This document shows positions 20,742 to 30,192 of a stretch of 33,213 nt of DNA, piece after piece. Made by a program: the position numbers and the translations under genes. Source of the stretch: a virus. Taxonomy: Duplodnaviria; Heunggongvirae; Uroviricota; Caudoviricetes. The notes beneath the pieces were generated by a model that worked only from the letters and a program-made list of their open reading frames with translations, searched no databases and was not told the origin of the DNA. The stretch lies in IMG/VR virus record IMGVR_UViG_3300045988_101411; one strand, given 5' to 3'. Position 1 is the first letter of the stretch. Every line of letters starts with the position of its first letter.

Positions 20742-22514
20742 ATGACCATCACCACAGACACCACTCTTTTACACGACCCGCGTCGTCAGGCGGCGCTGCT
20801 GTACTGGCAGGGGTTTTCCGTGCCGCAGATTGCCGCCATGTTGCAGATGAAACGCCCGACAGTGCAGAGCTGGAAACAGCGCGACGGCTGGGACAGCGTT
20901 GCCCCCATCAGCCGTGTCGAAATGAGTCTGGAAGCGCGGCTGACCCAGCTCATCATCAAACCGCAGAAAACCGGCGGTGACTTCAAGGAAATTGACCTGC
21001 TGGGACGCCAGATTGAACGACTGGCACGGGTAAACCGTTACAGCCAGACCGGCAACGAGGCAGACCTTAATCCGAACGTCGCTAACCGCAACAAAGGCGG
21101 GCGTCGCAAACCGAAAAAGAATTTTTTCAGTGACGAGGCCATCGAAAAGCTGGAGCAGATTTTCTTTGAGCAGTCTTTCGACTATCAGTTGCACTGGTAT
21201 CGCGCCGGGCTTGAGCACCGCATTCGCGATATCCTGAAATCCCGCCAGATTGGCGCGACGTTTTATTTTTCCCGCGAGGCGCTGCTGCGCGCCCTGAAAA
21301 CCGGCCATAACCAGATTTTTCTGTCGGCCAGTAAAACGCAGGCGTATGTGTTCCGTGAATACATCATCGCCTTTGCCCGGCTGGTTGACGTTGACCTGAC
21401 CGGTGACCCGATTGTCCTGGGCAATAACGGCGCAAAACTGATTTTTCTCGGCACCAACTCCAACACCGCGCAGAGCCATAACGGCGACCTGTACGTCGAC
21501 GAGATTTTCTGGATCCCGAATTTTCAGGTGCTGCGTAAGGTGGCATCAGGTATGGCCTCACAGAGTCACCTGCGCTCGACCTATTTCTCCACCCCGTCCA
21601 CTCTGGCGCACGACGCCTACCCGTTCTGGTCAGGTGAACTGTTTAACCGGGGACGCGCCAGCGCCGCCGAACGCGTGGAAATCGACGTCAGTCATAACGC
21701 CCTTGCCGGTGGGCTTCTCTGTGAGGACGGCCAGTGGCGGCAGATTGTCACCATTGAGGACGCGCTGAAAGGCGGCTGCACGCTGTTCGACATTGAGCAG
21801 CTCAAACGCGAAAACAGCGCCGACGATTTTAAAAACCTGTTCATGTGTGAATTTGTTGACGACAAGGCGTCGGTGTTCCCGTTCGAGGAGCTGCAACGCT
21901 GCATGGTCGACACGCTGGAAGAATGGGAAGACTATGCGCCGTTTGCCGCCAATCCGTTCGGCTCCCGCCCGGTATGGATTGGTTACGACCCGTCACACCG
22001 TGGCGACAGCGCCGGATGCGTGGTGCTGGCACCACCGGTGGTAGCCGGTGGCAAATTCAGAATACTTGAGCGTCACCAGTGGAAAGGCATGGACTTTGCC
22101 ACCCAGGCGGAATCCATCCGCAAACTCACCGAAAAATATAACGTCGAATACATCGGTATTGATGCCACCGGCCTCGGTGTCGGCGTGTTCCAGCTCGTGC
22201 GCTCGTTCTATCCCGCCGCGCGCGACATCCGCTACACGCCGGAAATGAAAACCGCAATGGTGCTCAAGGCAAAAGACGTTATCCGTCGTGGCTGTCTGGA
22301 ATATGACGTCAGCGCCACCGACATCACCAGCTCGTTTATGGCTATCCGCAAGACCATGACCAGCAGCGGACGCAGCGCCACCTATGAGGCCAGCCGCAGC
22401 GAGGAAGCCAGCCACGCCGACCTCGCCTGGGCGACCATGCACGCCCTGTTAAATGAGCCACTCACCGCCGGTATCAGCACCCCGCTGACATCCACCATTC
22501 TGGAGTTTTACTGA
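20742..22514 (+). CDS. P: Terminase large (ATPase) subunit P, 590 aa
   Basis: Start MTITTDTTLL... with GAGG Shine-Dalgarno; length matches P2 P. Confidence 0.9.
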   Translation: MTITTDTTLLHDPRRQAALLYWQGFSVPQIAAMLQMKRPTVQSWKQRDGWDSVAPISRVEMSLEARLTQLIIKPQKTGGDFKEIDLLGRQIERLARVNRYSQTGNEADLNPNVANRNKGGRRKPKKNFFSDEAIEKLEQIFFEQSFDYQLHWYRAGLEHRIRDILKSRQIGATFYFSREALLRALKTGHNQIFLSASKTQAYVFREYIIAFARLVDVDLTGDPIVLGNNGAKLIFLGTNSNTAQSHNGDLYVDEIFWIPNFQVLRKVASGMASQSHLRSTYFSTPSTLAHDAYPFWSGELFNRGRASAAERVEIDVSHNALAGGLLCEDGQWRQIVTIEDALKGGCTLFDIEQLKRENSADDFKNLFMCEFVDDKASVFPFEELQRCMVDTLEEWEDYAPFAANPFGSRPVWIGYDPSHRGDSAGCVVLAPPVVAGGKFRILERHQWKGMDFATQAESIRKLTEKYNVEYIGIDATGLGVGVFQLVRSFYPAARDIRYTPEMKTAMVLKAKDVIRRGCLEYDVSATDITSSFMAIRKTMTSSGRSATYEASRSEEASHADLAWATMHALLNEPLTAGISTPLTSTILEFY

Positions 22515-23548
22515 TGAGCAAGAAAAAAGGGAAAACACCGCAACCTGCGGCAAAAACAATCACCGCCAGCGCCCCGAAAATGGAAGCATTCACCTTTGGC
22601 GAGCCGGTGCCGGTACTCGACCGCCGTGACATTCTGGATTACGTCGAGTGCATCAGTAACGGCAGATGGTATGAGCCGCCGGTCAGCTTTACCGGTCTGG
22701 CAAAAAGCCTGCGTGCTGCCGTGCATCACAGCTCTCCGATTTACGTCAAACGTAATATTCTGGCTTCAACGTTTATCCCGCACCCGTGGCTTTCCCAGCA
22801 GGATTTCAGCCGTTTTGTGCTGGATTTTCTGGTGTTCGGTAATGCGTTTCTGGAAAAGCGTTACAGCACCACCGGTAAGGTCATCAGACTGGAAACCTCA
22901 CCGGCAAAATATACCCGCCGTGGCGTGGAGGAGGATGTTTACTGGTGGGTGCCGTCCTTCAACGAGCCGACAGCCTTCACGCCCGGCTCCGTGTTTCACC
23001 TGCTGGAGCCGGATATTAATCAGGAGCTGTACGGCCTGCCGGAATATCTCAGCGCCCTTAATTCTGCCTGGCTGAATGAGTCGGCCACGCTGTTCCGCCG
23101 AAAGTATTACGAAAATGGCGCTCATGCCGGATACATCATGTACGTCACCGATGCCGTGCAGGATCGCAACGATATCGAAATGCTTCGCGAAAACATGGTG
23201 AAGTCGAAAGGCCGCAACAACTTTAAAAATCTGTTTCTCTATGCCCCACAAGGGAAAGCCGACGGCATTAAAATTATCCCGCTCAGTGAAGTGGCAACGA
23301 AGGATGATTTTTTTAATATCAAAAAAGCCAGCGCCGCAGACCTGCTGGACGCGCACCGCATCCCCTTTCAGTTGATGGGCGGCAAGCCGGAGAACGTCGG
23401 GTCACTGGGCGATATTGAGAAAGTGGCAAAGGTCTTTGTCCGCAATGAGCTTATCCCGCTACAGGACAGGATCCGCGAGATAAACGGCTGGCTTGGTCAG
23501 GAGGTCATCCGCTTTAAAAACTACTCACTGGACACTGACAACGGCTGA
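22514..23548 (+). CDS. Q: Portal protein Q, 344 aa
   Basis: ATGA overlap with P stop; length matches P2 Q. Confidence 0.9.
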   Translation: MSKKKGKTPQPAAKTITASAPKMEAFTFGEPVPVLDRRDILDYVECISNGRWYEPPVSFTGLAKSLRAAVHHSSPIYVKRNILASTFIPHPWLSQQDFSRFVLDFLVFGNAFLEKRYSTTGKVIRLETSPAKYTRRGVEEDVYWWVPSFNEPTAFTPGSVFHLLEPDINQELYGLPEYLSALNSAWLNESATLFRRKYYENGAHAGYIMYVTDAVQDRNDIEMLRENMVKSKGRNNFKNLFLYAPQGKADGIKIIPLSEVATKDDFFNIKKASAADLLDAHRIPFQLMGGKPENVGSLGDIEKVAKVFVRNELIPLQDRIREINGWLGQEVIRFKNYSLDTDNG

Positions 23549-23717: not shown

Positions 23718-23736
23718 GTGCTTTCCCCGCCTCGCC
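23718..23736. other. cos: cos site (19-nt cohesive-end sequence)
   Basis: GTGCTTTCCCCGCCTCGCC is the reverse complement of GGCGAGGCGGGGAAAGCAC, the P2 cohesive end as I recall it; located between Q and the cargo, as expected. Confidence 0.8.
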
Positions 23737-23873: not shown

Positions 23874-25163
23874 CTACTTTGTAAAAAGAGGCCTATATTT
23901 TTCAAACAAGGAGGTTTCGGATGTATTAACATCAGTGGCAGGCTGCATCTCAGCATGTTGCTTTTGTAAACGCTTAAATCTATCAATTGAATCTTTAATT
24001 AACCAAGACATTGACACCATTTCTAAAGGAGTGCGAAGCATCATTTGCCATGACACCCCCCAAATCAATGAGCTACCAAATTCTTTAAATATCATCGAAT
24101 AGTCTTCACCATCGACAAAAACAAGCTCAAACCCTTCATTCAAAGCTATTTGTTTAAAACAATCCAAATCAAGAACACAGAGAATGGTTAACTCCCCATT
24201 TATAAAGTCACACAAATCACGCGCATCATTTATAAGATTAACAAATGGAGTTAAAGGAACCCACAATTGATTATTTTTATATTCATTCAAAAATATAGGT
24301 GCAATTTTCCTCCCTCTAAGATCCAACTGTGATAATGCTATTTCCAGATCACAGCCACGATTAGATACCACATAAAATCCATCTTCTAGCCTTACCCATG
24401 AAATTCCTTTTTTCCTGCATACATTCAGATGCTCATTAAATTCTTTTTTATATGTAACTTCTGAAAAACACAGTTCTTTCCTTAACACTAATGGCATCCC
24501 TCTAAAATCTTCAGCTTTATCTTCTGCTAAAAATTCAGCCAGTCTATTAAGGTTATTTTTTTGACGTTCAACACGATCATTTTTATTTTGACTTGATTTC
24601 ACCTCCACTAGTACTGGTGCACCTTCACCAAGTAAACAAACATCACCATGCCTCATACTCATTGTAATATCATTGAGTAACGTAGGAACACCAGCCTTGC
24701 AGGCCTTCTTCACCAATTCCCATTCTTCTTTTAAGCCATCCTTCCCTCCCATATAGCCTGCTGACTCCTTGGGACTGTAATCCACAACATTATAAAAAAA
24801 ATGCTTAATATCAAACTTATCCAAATACAAAAAAGCAACACTATCACCAAACATTTTGAAGATATATATTTTAAATTTCACATCATCAATAACCTGCTCA
24901 ACACTCTTAATATTTTCCTTAATAAGTTTAGATTGTTCTTTTTTTAAACCACCTTTTCTTTTTGTTGCCTTTAGTTCCCCTAAGAAAGACTTTAATCCTT
25001 TGATCATCCTTTCACTTCTAATTATATTCCTTATTATTTTGAACTGAAACGACAACAACAAATCTGTATTTTTTAGGTTTCCCTCTAATTTTACCAGGTC
25101 TTTTTTCAAATCAAACACTACCGAGTCATGCAATTTTCGACTCAATTCAGTCTTAAACTTCAT
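23874..25163 (-). CDS. Cargo gene 2 of the tin/old-hotspot cassette: 429-aa protein with PD-(D/E)xK-like nuclease signature; function unknown
   Basis: ATG 25161-25163 with GAGGGA Shine-Dalgarno; EEWELVKK (acidic helix) then RHGDVCLLGEGAPVLVEVKSS (D174, E187-x-K189; motif encoded at 24597-24644, verified by manual translation); no Walker A P-loop; strongly AT-rich. Confidence 0.85.
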   Translation of the reverse strand: MKFKTELSRKLHDSVVFDLKKDLVKLEGNLKNTDLLLSFQFKIIRNIIRSERMIKGLKSFLGELKATKRKGGLKKEQSKLIKENIKSVEQVIDDVKFKIYIFKMFGDSVAFLYLDKFDIKHFFYNVVDYSPKESAGYMGGKDGLKEEWELVKKACKAGVPTLLNDITMSMRHGDVCLLGEGAPVLVEVKSSQNKNDRVERQKNNLNRLAEFLAEDKAEDFRGMPLVLRKELCFSEVTYKKEFNEHLNVCRKKGISWVRLEDGFYVVSNRGCDLEIALSQLDLRGRKIAPIFLNEYKNNQLWVPLTPFVNLINDARDLCDFINGELTILCVLDLDCFKQIALNEGFELVFVDGEDYSMIFKEFGSSLIWGVSWQMMLRTPLEMVSMSWLIKDSIDRFKRLQKQHAEMQPATDVNTSETSLFEKYRPLFTK

Positions 25164-25275
25164 AGTTCCCTCAATAAAAGCAACTTACAGTCAAGGTAAT
25201 TACTCCTGTAGTGGAACAGACTATTGCAGTCTCGCTCCACCACTAGTATAACAAGTGTCAATACGGCATCAACGA

Positions 25276-26007
25276 TTAGTTATCTAATACTGAAACGACT
25301 TCGCCCGTTCGGATGTCGACACGCGCAGCAATAGTCTGTTTAACTACTCCTCCATAAGCATTAGTGCCACGAAATGTGGTTTTCACAATGGCGTGCGGGT
25401 CTTTATTCAAAACCAAATGATATACCGTTGACACATGTTTATAAGATGAATCATCGTTCATATTATCTTTAATTAGTTTTTCCAATGGACGATAAGAACC
25501 ATCCCAACCACTAAAATTGCTCTGAAATGTATCAAGATTGATTTTATTGTTTAGTGAATTCGGGTCATTTTCATAATCATTAAAGCACCACCCAAGAACA
25601 TCACCGAGTTTCAACTCATCATCTTTGGTAAATGTATACTCACTCATGCAGGCATAAAATGCATCTGATGCGGTGACTGGCACTTTCTTAAAGTTAATGT
25701 AACTATTCACAATATCGTGTCGAGTCTTCTTTGGCTCGTTCCGATATTCCTTGAGTGTTTTTTCAGTATATTCGAATGTTTTTTGAGCCTGGTGTTCTGC
25801 TACGGTTGCTGTTTCAGTTTTAGCAACTGGCTGGCTTTTTTCTGTTGGGTAGAGTATTGAACCAATTATGCTCAATGCAAAACCACCTCCGAGATAAACC
25901 GCACTTGCACGTTTACGGTTTGGCATCCGCACCAGTGATGGCTTGATTAACCCGATGAAAAAAGCAACGAAAAAAGCGAGTGATAGAAAAGCGATTACAA
26001 TATCCAT
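25276..26007 (-). CDS. Cargo gene 1 of the tin/old-hotspot cassette: membrane protein with two N-terminal TM helices and a soluble C-terminal domain, about 243 aa; function unknown
   Basis: ATG 26005-26007 with AGGA Shine-Dalgarno (track ORF starts at an upstream GTG 26031); hydrophobic segments IVIAFLSLAFFVAFFIGLI and AVYLGGGFALSIIGSILY; co-oriented with the downstream 429-aa gene; AT-rich. Confidence 0.8.
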   Translation of the reverse strand: MDIVIAFLSLAFFVAFFIGLIKPSLVRMPNRKRASAVYLGGGFALSIIGSILYPTEKSQPVAKTETATVAEHQAQKTFEYTEKTLKEYRNEPKKTRHDIVNSYINFKKVPVTASDAFYACMSEYTFTKDDELKLGDVLGWCFNDYENDPNSLNNKINLDTFQSNFSGWDGSYRPLEKLIKDNMNDDSSYKHVSTVYHLVLNKDPHAIVKTTFRGTNAYGGVVKQTIAARVDIRTGEVVSVLDN

Positions 26008-26236
26008 AGCTATCCTTTTTGCATCATCCACATAAAAAATCGACCTTATGTTAGCAACAGGAAGCTTACTTTTGAATATTTGTAAGTTGTTAGCTTTAGC
26101 TCTCCGAGCTAACTCCTTTCAACCGTCAAAAACCAGCACCAACGCAGTAAAAATATGACTGTCAACTAACGCCTCGCTTCGCTCGTTGTTCAACCCCGCC
26201 AGCCCTGAAAACAAGTTTCACGACTGGCGGCGTTCT

Positions 26237-26443
26237 CTATCGTCTGCGTGGTGGTGGCGTAACTCTTGATTGACCGATATGGTTAAACCGCCCGTAATTA
26301 TCCCGGACTATTTCGGCACACCCGACTAGCTCATCTGGCGTCAGATTTTCGTTGACCATAATCCGCTGTAAACGCTGAACAATAGCCATCAGCTTGATAT
26401 TTTTAGTTTTATGGTGCGGTATCTCGCCTGGTATTCTGTGCAT
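26237..26443 (-). CDS. Small hypothetical protein (about 68 aa), translationally coupled to the upstream ASCH gene
   Basis: ATG overlaps the ASCH stop (TAATG at 26441-26445); no recognisable motif. Confidence 0.5.
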   Translation of the reverse strand: MHRIPGEIPHHKTKNIKLMAIVQRLQRIMVNENLTPDELVGCAEIVRDNYGRFNHIGQSRVTPPPRRR

Positions 26444-26895
26444 TATCCAAGCCACCCGTTTTGCTGTGCACGCTCCATCTGTTCATCTGAATAGTTCCAT
26501 GCTTCATCCGTGGCAACCATTGCACCGCCAGACATCCCCGTCTCTGGTTCATACATAACAGCAAGGCCGAGCTGATGCATAATTTCATGATTAATTCTGA
26601 ATACCAGACCACGCTCACTAAGTTCTTTCCAGTTCACAATCTCATATGCACCTGTATTAAGCAGCTCAATACTTAGCAAGACATAATCTTCCAGCCAGTC
26701 TGACAGGTCAGTAACATCTGTTATCCGGGCTTCAACCTTTCGCCCCGTATACACACCCTGCCCCCATTCATGCAAAATCAACGTGTCCCCGCGCTCATAA
26801 TTACGGTCATTTTTCCGAAACTCTGCGCGTTTCTTTCCTTCCAGCACAAGGTCGAAATATTTTGCGTGCAGCTTTACCTCGTGAATTTTTGCCAT
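26443..26895 (-). CDS. ASCH-domain protein (GxKxxExR motif) with a C-terminal HExxH motif, about 150 aa
   Basis: LEGKKRAEFR matches the ASCH hallmark GxKxxExR; NHEIMH contains HExxH; start ATG overlaps the A stop (TGATG) with GGAG Shine-Dalgarno. Confidence 0.75.
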   Translation of the reverse strand: MAKIHEVKLHAKYFDLVLEGKKRAEFRKNDRNYERGDTLILHEWGQGVYTGRKVEARITDVTDLSDWLEDYVLLSIELLNTGAYEIVNWKELSERGLVFRINHEIMHQLGLAVMYEPETGMSGGAMVATDEAWNYSDEQMERAQQNGWLG

Positions 26896-29180
26896 CATGT
26901 CCACTCCATTACTGTTGAAAATCCCGGCCATTCATCAGCGACCGGATACGTGAATTTTTTCCCGTCATAATTTACGGTTGCCCCACGCGCCAGCGCCTCA
27001 AGCTCCCATCGCTGCGGCCTGATACTATTCTGAGCAAGGTCAACGCGGATACGGGTAATTTGCATTCTTTCCGACCGGGTCAGTCTGGCCGATGGTGCAA
27101 TTTCATGTGGTTTTAACGGGCTTCCGTTTCTTTGCTGACGGTTTGGCGTTCTCAGGTCGTGTTTTAATGCGCCCCTGAGCGCCCTCACGACCTCCGGTTC
27201 ATTCCATTCAATAACACCGTTATCAACCAGATTAAGCACTGCTGCGGCGTGCTCAGAAGGTGTGGGAGCCGGTAACGAAGCATCACCACCAGTGAGCTTT
27301 CCACAGTTATTGACAGGACTCCGAGGCGCGGCGATGCCGCTTTTTAAAGTCAAAGGCTCAACGACCGGCACTTTCGGAACAATGCGCCAGTCCGTCGTTC
27401 TGGTGATATGAATATGACGCGCGCCGAGATGCGGCGCGTAAATGCCGACCACTCTCTCGACTTCTTCCTCATACTCGTTAACGTCATCCGACGGGCTACG
27501 GGCGACCCTGACAGTCTGACAATCGCGCGGGACATTTGCCCCACCCTGCGCGCTGATATACAGCGCAAAATCGCCACTGTCTGCGGCAGCGCGTGCAGCC
27601 TCGACGCGTTCGTCAAACTCATCAGCAATGCTGACGCCGCGAGGCAATTTGCGTAGTTCACGGTAAGCCCCCATTGTCGGCAGGCCAACCGTTTTAAATT
27701 GCGGAATGCGCCACGTTGACGCCCATGCGGTAACAGCCGCGGCAGTGTCTTTCAGCGGCCTGCCGGTATCGTTATCGAGCTGACCATCCAGTGCATAGCC
27801 GTCGATGTTTTTTGAAATGTATTTCGCGATATATCCCGCAGCACCGCCCCGGTTAAGGTGTTTTGCCTGAAAACGGTTTCGCGCAGCTCCTCTTTCGTCT
27901 CCATCCTCTTTGAGCGCGTAGCGACGCATGATTTCGATAATCTGGTTACGCTGGCGTGGATTACAAAAAAGCATCATATGCCAGTGCGGCGTTCCGTCGT
28001 GGTGTGGCTCGACGACACGCAAACCGTAGACCTGTAAATCATTATCCTTGAATGCCGTGCGCATCAGGCTCCAGATGCGGCAGAGATAACGCTGCGCATC
28101 CTTTGGATTAAATGCCTCATCGTTCCAGCCGTGATTAAGCTGAACGGTTTTACTTTCGCCTTTTCTGACCTGACGTGTCGGGTGATACTTTGACGGCGCG
28201 GTCAGCGTGATAAACATCCCCACATCACCCTCTGCGGCGGCGTAACGCTCAATACCGGCAATGGTGTTCATCAGCTCCATCCGGCGAATTTCAGGATTAG
28301 AAATACTGCCCATCACCTTACTGATAAGGTCGATACGCTCGCCGGTTTCCCTGTTTTCAAGGTCACACGATTTAAGAAATTCCAGATTTGCCTGGCGGCG
28401 CGCACGCACATCACGAATGGCGTGTTTACTGGCATAAGGAGAACGGTCTTTATTGACCTCCCCGACAGCTATCAGTAACGCTTCATGCCAGCGCATACGC
28501 TGGCCTTTAAGCTGATGAGTCCACCACTCATCGTTAAACAGACGGGCAATTGCAGAATATGCCTGCCTCGTGGTCATCTGTCCTTTACGGTATTTTTTCC
28601 AGTAAAGCGGGGAAATATTGAAAGCACGTGCAGCGCCAGCAACATGACCATAGAGGTGAGCCTGCGCCTCATCCGTAAACAGCGATTCTTTCTCGCCATG
28701 CGCATCCACCCAGGCATCGCAGAGTTCCTCATACATCATGAAAAGCTGTGATGAGATACGGGCGGCAAACTTTTTCAGCTCCTTGTCATTCATCCCCGGC
28801 AGGCGCGCATACTGGTCGCGCTCTGCCAGAAACAGCAACGACGCGTCGGTGTTCATTTCATGGCGCTGATTCACGCGCTCAATGCGCGGCCATAAACGAC
28901 GCTGAAAAGTGGATGTGAGGAAATAAAACCCGTGTACCGGGCTTTTATTGCGCCGGATGTAGTCATAGCGTGAAGTAAACAGCGAGCGCAAAAAGTAAGG
29001 CAGGCGGTTAATCGTGGATAAAACACCTTGCACCTGACGCATCTCATCACGTGTAAGGGGTCTTTCGCGCCCGACAGCCTCGCGTGGCGCGTTCCATGCA
29101 TAAGCACCGGCAAACGTCTTACCGGTGCCTGCGGCAAATGCTGACGGAGGGACAAAACGCCCGGAGGCTTTAACGGCCAT
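26895..29180 (-). CDS. A: Replication initiation protein A (rolling-circle nickase), 761 aa
   Basis: Start MAVKASGRFVPP... at ATG 29178-29180 (track ORF extends to a TTG); length matches P2 A; position after orf83. Confidence 0.88.
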   Translation of the reverse strand: MAVKASGRFVPPSAFAAGTGKTFAGAYAWNAPREAVGRERPLTRDEMRQVQGVLSTINRLPYFLRSLFTSRYDYIRRNKSPVHGFYFLTSTFQRRLWPRIERVNQRHEMNTDASLLFLAERDQYARLPGMNDKELKKFAARISSQLFMMYEELCDAWVDAHGEKESLFTDEAQAHLYGHVAGAARAFNISPLYWKKYRKGQMTTRQAYSAIARLFNDEWWTHQLKGQRMRWHEALLIAVGEVNKDRSPYASKHAIRDVRARRQANLEFLKSCDLENRETGERIDLISKVMGSISNPEIRRMELMNTIAGIERYAAAEGDVGMFITLTAPSKYHPTRQVRKGESKTVQLNHGWNDEAFNPKDAQRYLCRIWSLMRTAFKDNDLQVYGLRVVEPHHDGTPHWHMMLFCNPRQRNQIIEIMRRYALKEDGDERGAARNRFQAKHLNRGGAAGYIAKYISKNIDGYALDGQLDNDTGRPLKDTAAAVTAWASTWRIPQFKTVGLPTMGAYRELRKLPRGVSIADEFDERVEAARAAADSGDFALYISAQGGANVPRDCQTVRVARSPSDDVNEYEEEVERVVGIYAPHLGARHIHITRTTDWRIVPKVPVVEPLTLKSGIAAPRSPVNNCGKLTGGDASLPAPTPSEHAAAVLNLVDNGVIEWNEPEVVRALRGALKHDLRTPNRQQRNGSPLKPHEIAPSARLTRSERMQITRIRVDLAQNSIRPQRWELEALARGATVNYDGKKFTYPVADEWPGFSTVMEWT

Positions 29181-29445
29181 ATGAGCCAAAAGCCTCTGAA
29201 CAACGCTTGCTGAGTTGCTCAACCTGCGCGTTTAAATCAGCAAAAGACTTTGCGCTTCCGGTCAGAATATCGTGATGCATCAGGCCGGAAACGAGCTGGC
29301 TTAATTTCGGGTAATAACCAACCACCGACAGCCATTCCTGACCGGCGTTTTTACCGCTTTCCGCTCTCTTTTTCTCGTGGAGAATAAACTGAAAGCTGTC
29401 ACTGGTAACGACATAACGTCCGCCAATTTCAATACGAATACTCAT
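29170..29445 (-). CDS. Small early protein (P2 orf83 position), 91 aa
   Basis: ATG with GGAG Shine-Dalgarno; synteny. Confidence 0.7.
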   Translation of the reverse strand: MSIRIEIGGRYVVTSDSFQFILHEKKRAESGKNAGQEWLSVVGYYPKLSQLVSGLMHHDILTGSAKSFADLNAQVEQLSKRCSEAFGSYGR

Positions 29446-29666
29446 GCCGTTCTCCGGTAATGTTTGTTTTTTGCTTCAAAGACTGACTGACAGGAAACAC
29501 AACGCGTGGCTGACGGATAAGCCGCACGACGGGCAGCAGGTATTGGTGCGTCACACTCTTCGCAAACCAGCGCAGAAACACCGCAATGTTTTACCCTTGC
29601 CGCGTTAATCTGGCGCTCCAGTAATTCAGCCTGTTGTTCCTGAATAAAATCTACGTTGTCCGGCAT
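29442..29666 (-). CDS. TraR/DksA-family C4 zinc-finger protein (P2 orf82 position), 74 aa
   Basis: CxxC...CxxC (CEECD ... CVSCQ); AAGGAG Shine-Dalgarno; synteny. Confidence 0.75.
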   Translation of the reverse strand: MPDNVDFIQEQQAELLERQINAARVKHCGVSALVCEECDAPIPAARRAAYPSATRCVSCQSVFEAKNKHYRRTA

Positions 29667-29668
29667 TA

Positions 29669-29968
29669 TCAGCTCCTTTTATCGTTAAGTTTCCTGGATA
29701 CATCAGCGCAATAACTGGCAAGTTCTGTCGTTAATTTTGTCAGTTCATCCACTGAGGAAATTTGCTTATGAAATACAGCGCGTTTAACAAGTAAATTGAC
29801 CACATCAGACAGGAGATTTAATTCGTTCTGATAAATCGCGAAAACAGATTCAGTTATTTCGCGTTTTTCTTTATCAAACCTAAGTTGAATAAGAGACAAA
29901 TCGCCATTCTCCATAACGGCGATTTTTAAGGCGTTATTCAGTAATACAACTGAACGAGAACAGGACAT
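29669..29968 (-). CDS. Small early protein (P2 orf81 position), about 99 aa
   Basis: ATG 29966-29968 with GGGAGG Shine-Dalgarno (track start is a TTG one codon upstream). Confidence 0.7.
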   Translation of the reverse strand: MSCSRSVVLLNNALKIAVMENGDLSLIQLRFDKEKREITESVFAIYQNELNLLSDVVNLLVKRAVFHKQISSVDELTKLTTELASYCADVSRKLNDKRS

Positions 29969-30192
29969 CAAAGCACCTCCCCGCGAGACAATCCGATATT
30001 GTGAAATTTTTCCGACTCCTGACTGAGCAGCTCGACTATCTCCACGCGGGATAACTCCGCCTTTGTGATATGGCGAATCATGGCGTCAAGATGAGAAGAA
30101 AAGCGTGTCGCTGCGTCGGCCTGTGCTTCGGCTCTGGCCTATTGCAGCAGTAATGCGTATTTACCGCACTTGTTTTCAGAAACTGTATGCAT
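29968..30192 (-). pseudogene. orf80-position small ORF interrupted by an in-frame TAG at codon 18 (30139-30141)
   Basis: Manual translation: [76 protein letters not shown], ending with TGA that overlaps the next ATG (TGATG). Confidence 0.45.

Follow-up and report, generated by a model that had tools for sequence, protein, structure and literature searches.

Our results suggest that the AT-rich cargo interval of a P2-like prophage probably consists of two independent single-gene cassettes that lie side by side within the gpA-cos hotspot of P2, one for a 429-amino-acid (aa) predicted nuclease with a proposed anti-phage role and one for Orf97, a 243-aa membrane protein proposed to act at the envelope. 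An earlier note on the same window (the whole stretch of viral DNA that was analyzed, 33,213 nucleotides) had read the interval as one two-gene defense architecture. Its open reading frames (ORFs), base composition, hotspot position, nuclease motif, and transmembrane (TM) helices held up in our analysis, and its assignment of both genes to one cassette or system did not.

Position and composition of the cargo interval

The gene order of the prophage is gpA/orf91, cargo, cos, and portal (Table 1). With gpA and orf91 upstream and with cos and portal gene Q downstream, the cargo lies in the P2 tin/old hotspot, as had been proposed. The portal-side limit of the hotspot is marked by GGCGAGGCGGGGAAAGCAC, which is the P2/P4 cohesive end. 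The interval corresponds to what Rousset et al. (2022) described as the gpA-gpQ hotspot, and the string GGCGAGGCGGGGAAAGCAC is also present in the cos-proximal P4 clones of their Table S2A. The GC content is 0.29 to 0.41 over 23.8 to 26.0 kb versus 0.51 to 0.59 in the flanks, in agreement with an AT-rich island of horizontally acquired cargo. Both co-oriented ORFs are real and lie on the minus strand, with Shine-Dalgarno (SD)-like sequences, GAGGGA and AAGGA, before their ATG codons; an alternative GTG start of Orf97 at 26031 has no SD sequence.

TABLE 1 Features of the cargo interval and its flanks
Feature	Coordinates	Strand	Remarks
Portal Q	22514..23548	+	Downstream of cargo
cos cohesive-end sequence	23718..23736	-	Portal-side bound of hotspot
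429-aa PD-(D/E)xK-family protein (predicted)	23874..25163	-	ORF; phrog_14906; Rousset 2022 P2-hotspot entry #138
C-terminal alpha/beta region, residues 233-405	23949..24467	-	Confident model; invariant E260, P306, R377
Predicted PD-(D/E)xK nuclease core, residues 128-232	24468..24782	-	Invariant residues, model topology
N-terminal three-long-helix bundle, residues 1-125	24789..25163	-	Helices 2-28, 33-69, and 75-113 in model
112-nt leader of nuclease block	25164..25275	-	Within swapped block
Orf97, 243 aa	25276..26007	-	ORF from ATG 26007; phrog_3403; Rousset 2022 P2-hotspot entry #12, "2 TM"
Orf97 predicted periplasmic domain, residues 76-243	25279..25782	-	HdeA-like helical subdomain and four-stranded beta-sheet
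Conserved ~70-nt stem-loop	26163..26238	-	At hotspot entry, between 72-aa ORF and Orf97
orf91, DUF3850/ASCH	26443..26931	-	Upstream of cargo
gpA	26895..29222	-	Upstream of cargo

A family of predicted PD-(D/E)xK nucleases

The phrog_14906 match covers the full length of the 429-aa protein. Homologs were found in 24 clusters at first and then in 1,380 representative clusters, so that the family comprises about 1,400 clusters defined at 50% identity. Its members are about 400 aa long and come from many phyla, from Proteobacteria to Chloroflexi and Actinobacteria; 17 viral contigs also carry a homolog. Residues E147, D174, E187, K189, R197, and Q201 are invariant in the 24 homologs and again in 66 homologs with identities down to 23%, and D174, E187, and K189, which the earlier note had named in its nuclease-fold signature, are among them.

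In the AF2 model (pLDDT 87.8, pTM 0.89), residues 142 to 220 form an alpha-beta-beta-beta-alpha-beta core (helices 142-156 and 196-214; strands 161-163, 175-177, 184-186, and 216-220), with E147 on alpha1, D174 before beta2, E187-x-K189 at beta3, and R197 and Q201 on alpha2. This fold was called from the secondary structure of the model, with the motif residues at the expected places. When a profile of the core was compared with PDB sequences, the top four matches were all Hjc resolvases with the catalytic residues in register (E of 0.05 to 0.2, below significance); the full-length profile had matched only syntaxin and keratin coiled-coil noise, and Hjc emerged after trimming to the core. Some family members also have weak Pfam matches to PDDEXK_9 and Hjc. 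Foldseek against PDB gave nothing below an E value of 0.68. Together, the invariant residues and the modeled topology support the prediction, also made in the earlier note, that the 429-aa protein is a nuclease of the PD-(D/E)xK type; its catalytic residues are conserved.

The core is flanked by two further regions. The N-terminal bundle ends in a conserved FGDxxAFxYxDK motif (G106, D107) in which D107 is invariant; its sole matches are to generic helical bundles or coiled coils, and we propose that it is a regulatory or oligomerization module. The C-terminal region has no significant Foldseek match in PDB.

Neither the 429-aa protein nor Orf97 matches any Pfam or NCBIfam family or, at an E value of 1 or below, any family of PADLOC-DB 2.0.0 (2023), and the 66 family members gave only noise against the latter database; like the earlier note, we assign neither protein to a named system. 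Weak matches to mCpol in NCBIfam (E of 0.034) and to Zn_ribbon_ACC in Pfam (E of 0.044) were discarded as noise.

The predicted nuclease gene travels as a single-gene unit

The nuclease gene is patchy, being found in 17 + 10 of 5,426 complete Escherichia coli genomes. A Citrobacter ortholog (70% identical) is the sole gene between gpA and portal, an ortholog with 68% identity stands alone in a P2 remnant, and paralogs with 49 to 52% identity occupy the psu-int hotspot of P4. The family gene lies downstream of a serine recombinase in Vibrio and of an HTH-M78 gene in Ramlibacter. Clustering of the ORFs within 4 kb at 104 loci revealed no recurrent partner gene, and among the homolog-bearing loci tblastn found Orf97 solely in the identical prophage. 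The immediate neighbors include integrases, resolvases, and transposases as well as Shedu, LmuB, AriA/PtuA-type ATPases, and PDC-S15, an enrichment in defense genes that is semiquantitative, as it is based on top-25 family counts and crude ORF calls. These results show that the nuclease family is a single-gene mobile unit in mobile genetic element (MGE) and defense neighborhoods.

Moura de Sousa et al. (2026) found that six of eight randomly picked unknown P4-hotspot loci were defensive and that P2 and P4 almost never share defense genes. The P4 paralog is distinct from the Toga system of that study, which is an AAA/SMC-like ATPase, and the DNA of the paralog is absent from the constructs.

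Orf97, a predicted envelope protein

The 243-aa protein is annotated as Orf97, its PHROG matches are all of unknown function, with no superinfection-exclusion protein such as T4 Imm/Sp or P22 SieA among them, and its homologs form 161 clusters across Enterobacterales. The two N-terminal TM helices described before are seen in both the alignment and the model (TM1, residues 2 to 21; TM2, residues 31 to 52); a basic loop lies between them, and a disordered linker (residues 57 to 73) leads to the conserved domain. The pLDDT of the model is 83 overall and above 90 in the domain. Within the HdeA-like subdomain, C120 and C141 are invariant, and residues ~85 to 165 of the model superpose on HdeA/HdeB with a predicted disulfide-linked helical core. 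The positive-inside rule, the invariant cysteine pair, and the resemblance to a periplasmic-protein fold lead to the prediction that the globular domain faces the periplasm.

The gene that follows Orf97 varies; it may be an unrelated gene of 218, 224, 232, 89, or 322 aa, or there may be none. In E. coli G47-1, no other cargo accompanies Orf97, which in Photorhabdus stands alone beside ogr. P2-like prophages throughout Enterobacterales commonly carry Orf97 as an autonomous moron.

The two genes as probably separate cassettes

The nuclease gene and Orf97 occur together in only one near-clonal E. coli prophage lineage (16 to 17 genomes with DNA identities of 98.2% or more). By blastn, the similarity shared with other hotspot variants ends precisely at the stop codon of Orf97 (boundary 25275/25276), which indicates that the nuclease gene was swapped separately, as a block together with a 112-nt leader of its own. 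The leader carries a 16-bp hairpin and the GAGGGA sequence as well as a promoter-like TTGATG-16-TATACT with an upstream TG (25272..25245), a consensus match of a kind no commoner than in shuffled sequences.

In Table S5B of Rousset et al. (2022), the two proteins are listed apart as single-protein entries, with counts of 210 for Orf97 and 16 for the nuclease, and a close paralog of the nuclease appears in the P4-hotspot entry "WP_001406847 + WP_000742539" (count, 48). The same proteins or close paralogs were thus catalogued there with their sequences (P2 entries #12 and #138 and the P4 entry). All three catalogue sequences are absent from the table of evaluated systems in that study and from the constructs of Moura de Sousa et al. 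(2026), and accession and peptide searches gave no match in the accessible portions of the DefensePredictor and Vassallo (2022) supplements.

At the entry to the hotspot, the conserved junction stem-loop has a minimum free energy of -35.2 kcal/mol (z of -4.3). It was found in 67 phage records, some of which contain it twice, and at the cassette junctions of other P2-like phages; the alignment shows a compensatory stem change in locus L015, and a second copy lies between Orf97 and the next gene in loci L014 to L016. Against Rfam, the hairpin gave only a chance-level match and no family. We speculate that it is a homology anchor or a site driving cassette swapping in P2/186-family hotspots.

Comparison with known systems

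The predicted core of the 429-aa protein has the alpha-beta-beta-beta-alpha-beta arrangement of the archaeal Holliday-junction resolvase Hjc (PDB 1hh1, 4tkk, and 2eo0), whose GSAVE, PDIIAL, and LIEMKS segments align in register with E147, D174, E187, and K189. Hjc is a minimal dimeric enzyme of ~140 aa, whereas the 429-aa protein adds ~125 N-terminal and ~200 C-terminal residues and, unlike archaeal Hjc, is bacterial MGE cargo. Like Shedu (SduA), it is a single protein that would combine a noncatalytic regulatory region with a PD-(D/E)xK nuclease and is found in defense islands, and SduA genes adjoin two members of its family. However, it has no DUF4263/SduA_C match, its flanking domains are unlike those of Shedu, and its nuclease domain is central rather than C-terminal; among the 66 family members compared with SduA, there was one match, at an E value of 0.06.

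P2 Old and Tin are prophage-encoded exclusion proteins whose genes occupy the same locus between gpA and cos. Old, an ATPase-Toprim nuclease of the OLD/Gabija/PARIS type, is an ABC-ATPase with a Toprim domain and Tin is unrelated, whereas the 429-aa protein and Orf97 have neither a P-loop nor Toprim; searches of Pfam, NCBIfam, and PADLOC and the lack of a Walker A motif in the alignment agree with the earlier view that the nuclease is not of the Old type. The predicted HdeA/Rap1a-like domain of Orf97 recalls the small, helical, disulfide-bearing periplasmic fold of HdeA, HdeB, YmgD, and the type VI secretion system (T6SS) amidase-immunity proteins Rap1a and Tai4. Orf97 differs from this group in having no sequence-level match to it, in being phage encoded, in its tether of a two-TM hairpin, and in an extra four-stranded beta-sheet subdomain.

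Proposed functions and alternatives

As we infer its activity, trigger, and outcome, the 429-aa protein of cassette 1 (23874-25275) would be a cytoplasmic stand-alone anti-phage nuclease, plausibly a new stand-alone defense gene. Its noncatalytic domains would hold the nuclease silent or oligomerized until an infection cue, which, given the resolvase-like core, we guess to be phage DNA or branched replication or recombination intermediates; cleavage of DNA at the metal-dependent site would follow, so that the phage genome is destroyed or the infected cell is aborted. Cassette 2 (25276-26007) would encode Orf97 as an inner-membrane N-out/C-out hairpin with its HdeA/Rap1a-like, disulfide-bearing domain in the periplasm. 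Most likely, Orf97 would act at the envelope; it might, for instance, keep the genome of a superinfecting phage from entering or neutralize a periplasmic hydrolase.

That the two proteins instead form one two-gene abortive-infection system, with a membrane sensor or anchor and a nuclease effector, is now very improbable. The genes share one orientation and are separated by 112 nt in which no terminator is predicted, so that cotranscription and some functional interplay are conceivable, and 17 of 17 E. coli genomes with a P2-type nuclease have Orf97 directly upstream, although these genomes represent the single lineage described above. The two genes are apart in every other context examined, with no covariation across independent lineages and no homologous pairs at the hotspot of other P2-like prophages. 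Orf97 is absent from the nuclease loci of Citrobacter, P4 satellites, Pluralibacter, Vibrio, and Ramlibacter and from ~100 further ones, and Orf97 is itself far commoner without the nuclease (93 versus 17 complete E. coli genomes). The breakpoint at its stop codon and the separate catalogue entries point the same way, as does the predicted location of its domain in the periplasm, away from the cytoplasm, in which the nuclease would act. It is equally hard to sustain that Orf97 is a constant membrane adaptor that partners with exchangeable effectors encoded downstream of it (the 429-, 218-, 224-, and 232-aa proteins, DUF2971/PDC-S31, and others). In all P2-hotspot examples, Orf97 is indeed the first gene past the junction hairpin, with variable genes behind it, but it is solitary in E. 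coli G47-1 and Photorhabdus, the second hairpin of L014 to L016 parts it from the next gene, and downstream genes also occur solo, such as the 429-aa family and PDC-S31, a single-gene PADLOC candidate.

For the 429-aa family, we consider the chances even that it is an unrecognized, widespread stand-alone immune nuclease with an Hjc-like core gated by a new three-helix-bundle/alpha-beta sensor, rare in being carried by both P2 phages and their P4 satellites. A constitutive stand-alone type IV (modification-dependent) or structure-specific restriction endonuclease, rather than a triggered abortive-infection nuclease, is unlikely; it would suit a single PD-(D/E)xK protein that lacks a neighboring methyltransferase, and type IV enzymes are already P2-hotspot cargo (entry #10 in Table S5B of Rousset et al.), yet no modified-base reader domain (SRA, YTH, PUA, or DUF262) is recognized and the noncatalytic domains match no assigned fold. 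Unlikely too, and a little more so, is a nonimmune role in element maintenance or recombination (for example, as a resolvase-like enzyme in MGE integration/excision or cassette exchange) or as a selfish or addiction-type nuclease. By sequence, the protein comes closest to Holliday-junction resolvases, and its gene often lies at the ends of elements, next to integrases or serine recombinases. Nevertheless, it has no fixed recombinase partner, element ends also gather defense genes, and the core recombination functions of P2 and P4 are located outside the cargo hotspots in which the gene resides. Its patchy occurrence in E. coli and the ~300 residues beyond a minimal resolvase also argue against such a role.

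Should the 429-aa gene protect against phages, bacterial immunity would gain a new single-gene nuclease family that is very widespread, is covered by neither a Pfam nor a PADLOC model, and has no solved relative, and this would be a rare defense family found in both P2 and P4 hotspots. Two stacked modules that are cloned or annotated as one system may lead to misassigned phenotypes, and adjacency within a recombination hotspot is weak evidence that genes are functionally linked. In the Rousset catalogue, Orf97 ranks among the more frequent genes of the P2 hotspot, and its predicted periplasm-facing HdeA/Rap1a-like domain points to envelope-level exclusion or immunity.

RESULTS

The window is a P2-like (Peduovirus) E. 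coli prophage, with a cassette region 99.7% identical to that of strain 19KM1831. The 429-aa ORF and the 243-aa ORF (Orf97) lie in a segment (23.8 to 26.0 kb) with a GC content of 0.29 to 0.41, between flanks of 0.51 to 0.59. Upstream of both, on the same strand, are a 72-aa ORF, orf91, and replication gene A; the former two are conserved in many P2-like phages, and the table of Rousset et al. counts the DUF3850 gene within the variable locus. The portal gene lies on the downstream side, together with cos. Rousset et al. (2022) described this site as the gpA-gpQ hotspot; P2 itself has old and tin there. The sequence-level description in the earlier note, of both ORFs, their AT-richness, and their position, agrees in full with the ORF calls, PGAP, the GC scan, and the neighboring genes. 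A second AT-rich stretch (GC content, 0.40 to 0.45) is present beyond gene A. In the otherwise identical prophage of 19KM1831, an IS3-family element splits gene A, and in E. coli LR-45 (H42/H67) an IS3 breaks up the cargo region, the 429-aa gene matching over its 3' 948 nt only.

Coordinates of features in the window and in fetched loci
Feature	Position	Strand	Remark
cos, GGCGAGGCGGGGAAAGCAC	23718-23736		downstream of both ORFs
429-aa ORF	23874..25163	-	ORF call; PGAP agrees in identical genomes
Leader hairpin, GTGGTGGAGCGAGACTG...AGTCTGTTCCACTAC	25195-25235	-	16 bp; between promoter-like site and SD of 429-aa gene
243-aa ORF (Orf97)	25276..26007	-	ORF call; PGAP agrees in identical genomes
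Junction stem-loop	26163-26238	-	hotspot entry
72-aa ORF (phrog_11386)	26237-26455	-	between gene A and hotspot
orf91 (DUF3850/ASCH + DUF7415)	26443-26931	-	between gene A and hotspot
Second AT-rich stretch	~29400-30000		beyond gene A
Other stem-loop copies	L014 2919-2983; L015 2938-2985; L016 2918-2986; L012 5818-5893
Gene A split by IS3, 19KM1831	L004 7296-10851
DUF2971 gene after Orf97, Serratia	L118 5755-6723
HTH_3 + Peptidase_M78 gene, Ramlibacter	L013 4846-5982
457-aa gene, P4-like satellites	L017 2917-4290 (L120 6397-7770; L121 3162-4535)	+ (L017)

Among 5,426 complete E. coli genomes, Orf97 is harbored by 93 and the P2-type nuclease by 17, with identity across the entire region no lower than 98.2% among the latter. 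In other loci the genes that follow Orf97 are unrelated (218, 224, 232, or 89 aa), and in E. coli G47-1 there is none. In a Serratia P2-like prophage, the gene after Orf97 encodes a 322-aa DUF2971 protein with a match (E = 8e-31) to PDC-S31, a single-gene candidate in PADLOC, another case of independent cargo stacked after Orf97. Photorhabdus harbors Orf97 alone beside ogr, at the opposite end of the prophage. When the window was compared by blastn with loci carrying Orf97 and the 218- or 224-aa gene, homology covered 23400-23772/23783 and resumed at 25276, the stop codon of Orf97, so that the nuclease gene and its own 112-nt leader form the swapped block. The leader contains a promoter-like site (extended -10; a consensus match only) and a 16-bp hairpin with no T-run behind it; an operator, an RNA stabilizer, or a weak terminator for Orf97 are candidate roles for this hairpin. 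In the curated Table S5B of Rousset et al., both are single-protein entries: Orf97 is #12 ("2 TM," count of 210) and the nuclease is #138 (count of 16).

Orf97 has 161 homologous clusters across the Enterobacterales, almost all of 239 to 249 aa. The alignment runs from TM1 through an invariant basic loop (five K/R), TM2, and a variable low-complexity linker to a conserved domain in which C120 and C141 are invariant, modeled at a pLDDT above 90 as a helical subdomain and then a sheet of four strands. This domain is predicted to be periplasmic from its fold, the conserved cysteines, and the positive-inside rule, and direct partnership with a cytoplasmic nuclease is therefore topologically unlikely.

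The 429-aa protein has no Pfam, NCBIfam, or PADLOC 2.0 match, its sole match being a PHROG without known function. A word-indexed search gave 24 clusters. When 1.84 billion representatives were searched exhaustively with a profile, 1,380 passed E ≤ 1e-3, of which 465 also passed E ≤ 1e-30, nearly all being ~400 aa long and aligning end to end. The fetched loci are from Alpha-, Beta-, and Gammaproteobacteria, Acidobacteria, Spirochaetia, Chloroflexi, Bacteroidetes, Planctomycetes, Myxococcales, and Streptomyces, and the family also occurs on 17 viral contigs. In 66 aligned sequences, with identity down to 23%, the invariant residues are D107, G143, E147, T167, D174, E187, K189, R197, Q201, E260, P306, and R377, including the D174/E187/K189 signature pointed out earlier. 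In the AlphaFold model, which has high confidence (pLDDT, 87.8; pTM, 0.89), three long helices (2-113) precede H142-156, E161-163, E175-177, E184-186, H196-214, and E216-220, the canonical PD-(D/E)xK order, with E147 on the first helix of the core, D174 immediately ahead of strand two, E187-x-K189 at strand three, and Q201 on the next helix. Foldseek of the model against the PDB gave no match. With a profile of residues 128-232 alone, the top four PDB matches were all Hjc Holliday-junction resolvases (E = 0.05 to 0.2), their four catalytic positions in register with the family; sub-threshold PDDEXK_9 and Hjc Pfam matches of some members point in the same direction. The assignment to PD-(D/E)xK is well supported, short of statistical proof, and the protein indeed lacks a P-loop, as well as a Toprim domain.

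The nuclease gene also occurs without Orf97. A Citrobacter orthologue (70% identical) is the sole called gene between gpA and the portal gene, and a 68% orthologue stands alone in a decayed P2 remnant. Paralogues of 49 to 52% identity occupy the P4 psu-int hotspot (one cluster has ~960 member sequences), convergent with an unrelated 457-aa gene (WP_001406847) that overlaps the integrase gene by 4 nt and has no Pfam or PADLOC match; Rousset et al. (2022) give both genes a single "hypothetical + hypothetical" entry (count of 48). The paralogue is alone in a Pluralibacter P4 remnant, a Vibrio homologue follows a large serine recombinase, and a Ramlibacter homologue follows, after a 19-nt gap, a 378-aa HTH_3 + Peptidase_M78 (ImmA/IrrE-like) gene. 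When all fetched loci with a homologue were searched by tblastn, the identical E. coli prophage was the only one with Orf97. In 104 loci, ORFs within 4 kb were clustered all against all, and no recurrent neighbor emerged; the recurring clusters were antisense shadow ORFs and P4/P2 backbone genes of a few enterobacterial loci, and nothing else.

The hotspot entry carries a ~70-nt stem-loop (RNA MFE, -35.2 kcal/mol; z, -4.3) that is conserved in P2, W-phi, PSP3, 186, and relatives (67 P2/186-family phage records), with no Rfam match. In some genomes two copies flank a cargo gene, the second between Orf97 and the next one; in Citrobacter the stem-loop is immediately 5' of the lone nuclease gene, and in one copy the stem has changed in a compensatory manner. 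The element may serve to terminate the early operon, to anchor homology for cassette swaps, or both.

DISCUSSION

The earlier note had joined the two genes in one cassette. Our results indicate that this is not a real unit, since each gene is found separately, the breakpoint falls at the Orf97 stop codon, and the curated entries are separate; among the loci compared, the pair recurs solely within one near-clonal E. coli prophage lineage. A true two-gene system is very improbable, as the nuclease family lacks Orf97 in the other loci, Orf97 is mostly without the nuclease, and a topological mismatch is predicted. The varied genes behind Orf97 raise the alternative that it is a shared adaptor serving swappable effectors, which we consider highly unlikely.

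The nuclease is most likely a stand-alone anti-phage nuclease, whose trigger, substrate, and outcome (restriction versus abortive infection) we infer. Its gene is present in the P2 and P4 hotspots alike, and unknown cargo of such hotspots has mostly proved defensive when tested, as with six of eight random P4 loci in Moura de Sousa et al. (2026). The immediate neighbors of 141 diverse members belong to 139 different Pfam families. The recurrent PADLOC matches are mad3/mad8, PDC-S15, LmuB, AriA/PtuA-type ATPases, SduA, and HEC-02A; the recurrent Pfam families include SMC/AAA ATPases, SduA_C, and FRG, and also integrases, resolvases, transposases, and P4-type primases. The Hjc matches and the neighboring integrases would also fit an element-maintenance or recombination nuclease, an unlikely reading. 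Within the defense reading, a constitutive type-IV-like restriction enzyme is an unlikely variant. As a stand-alone anti-phage nuclease, the protein would have an Hjc-like catalytic core gated or oligomerized by the helical bundle and the C-terminal region. The logic resembles that of Shedu, a single-protein PD-(D/E)xK system, of which the 429-aa protein is not a member.

Both proteins are absent from PADLOC 2.0 and, by accession or peptide search, from the tested sets of Rousset 2022, and have no such match in the searched text of the Vassallo 2022 or DefensePredictor supplements. The DNA of the P4 paralogue is not among the constructs of Moura de Sousa 2026, and the new systems described there (Crouga, Bandua, Aernus, Toga, Reve, and Hailong) differ in architecture. 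Both genes are catalogued by Rousset et al. and, as far as PADLOC 2.0 and these sets go, uncharacterized. The nuclease is a candidate single-protein PD-(D/E)xK defense system. A defensive role is expected of new hotspot cargo; what is of note is that the family, without a model in the libraries searched, is very large and is found in P2 and P4 both.
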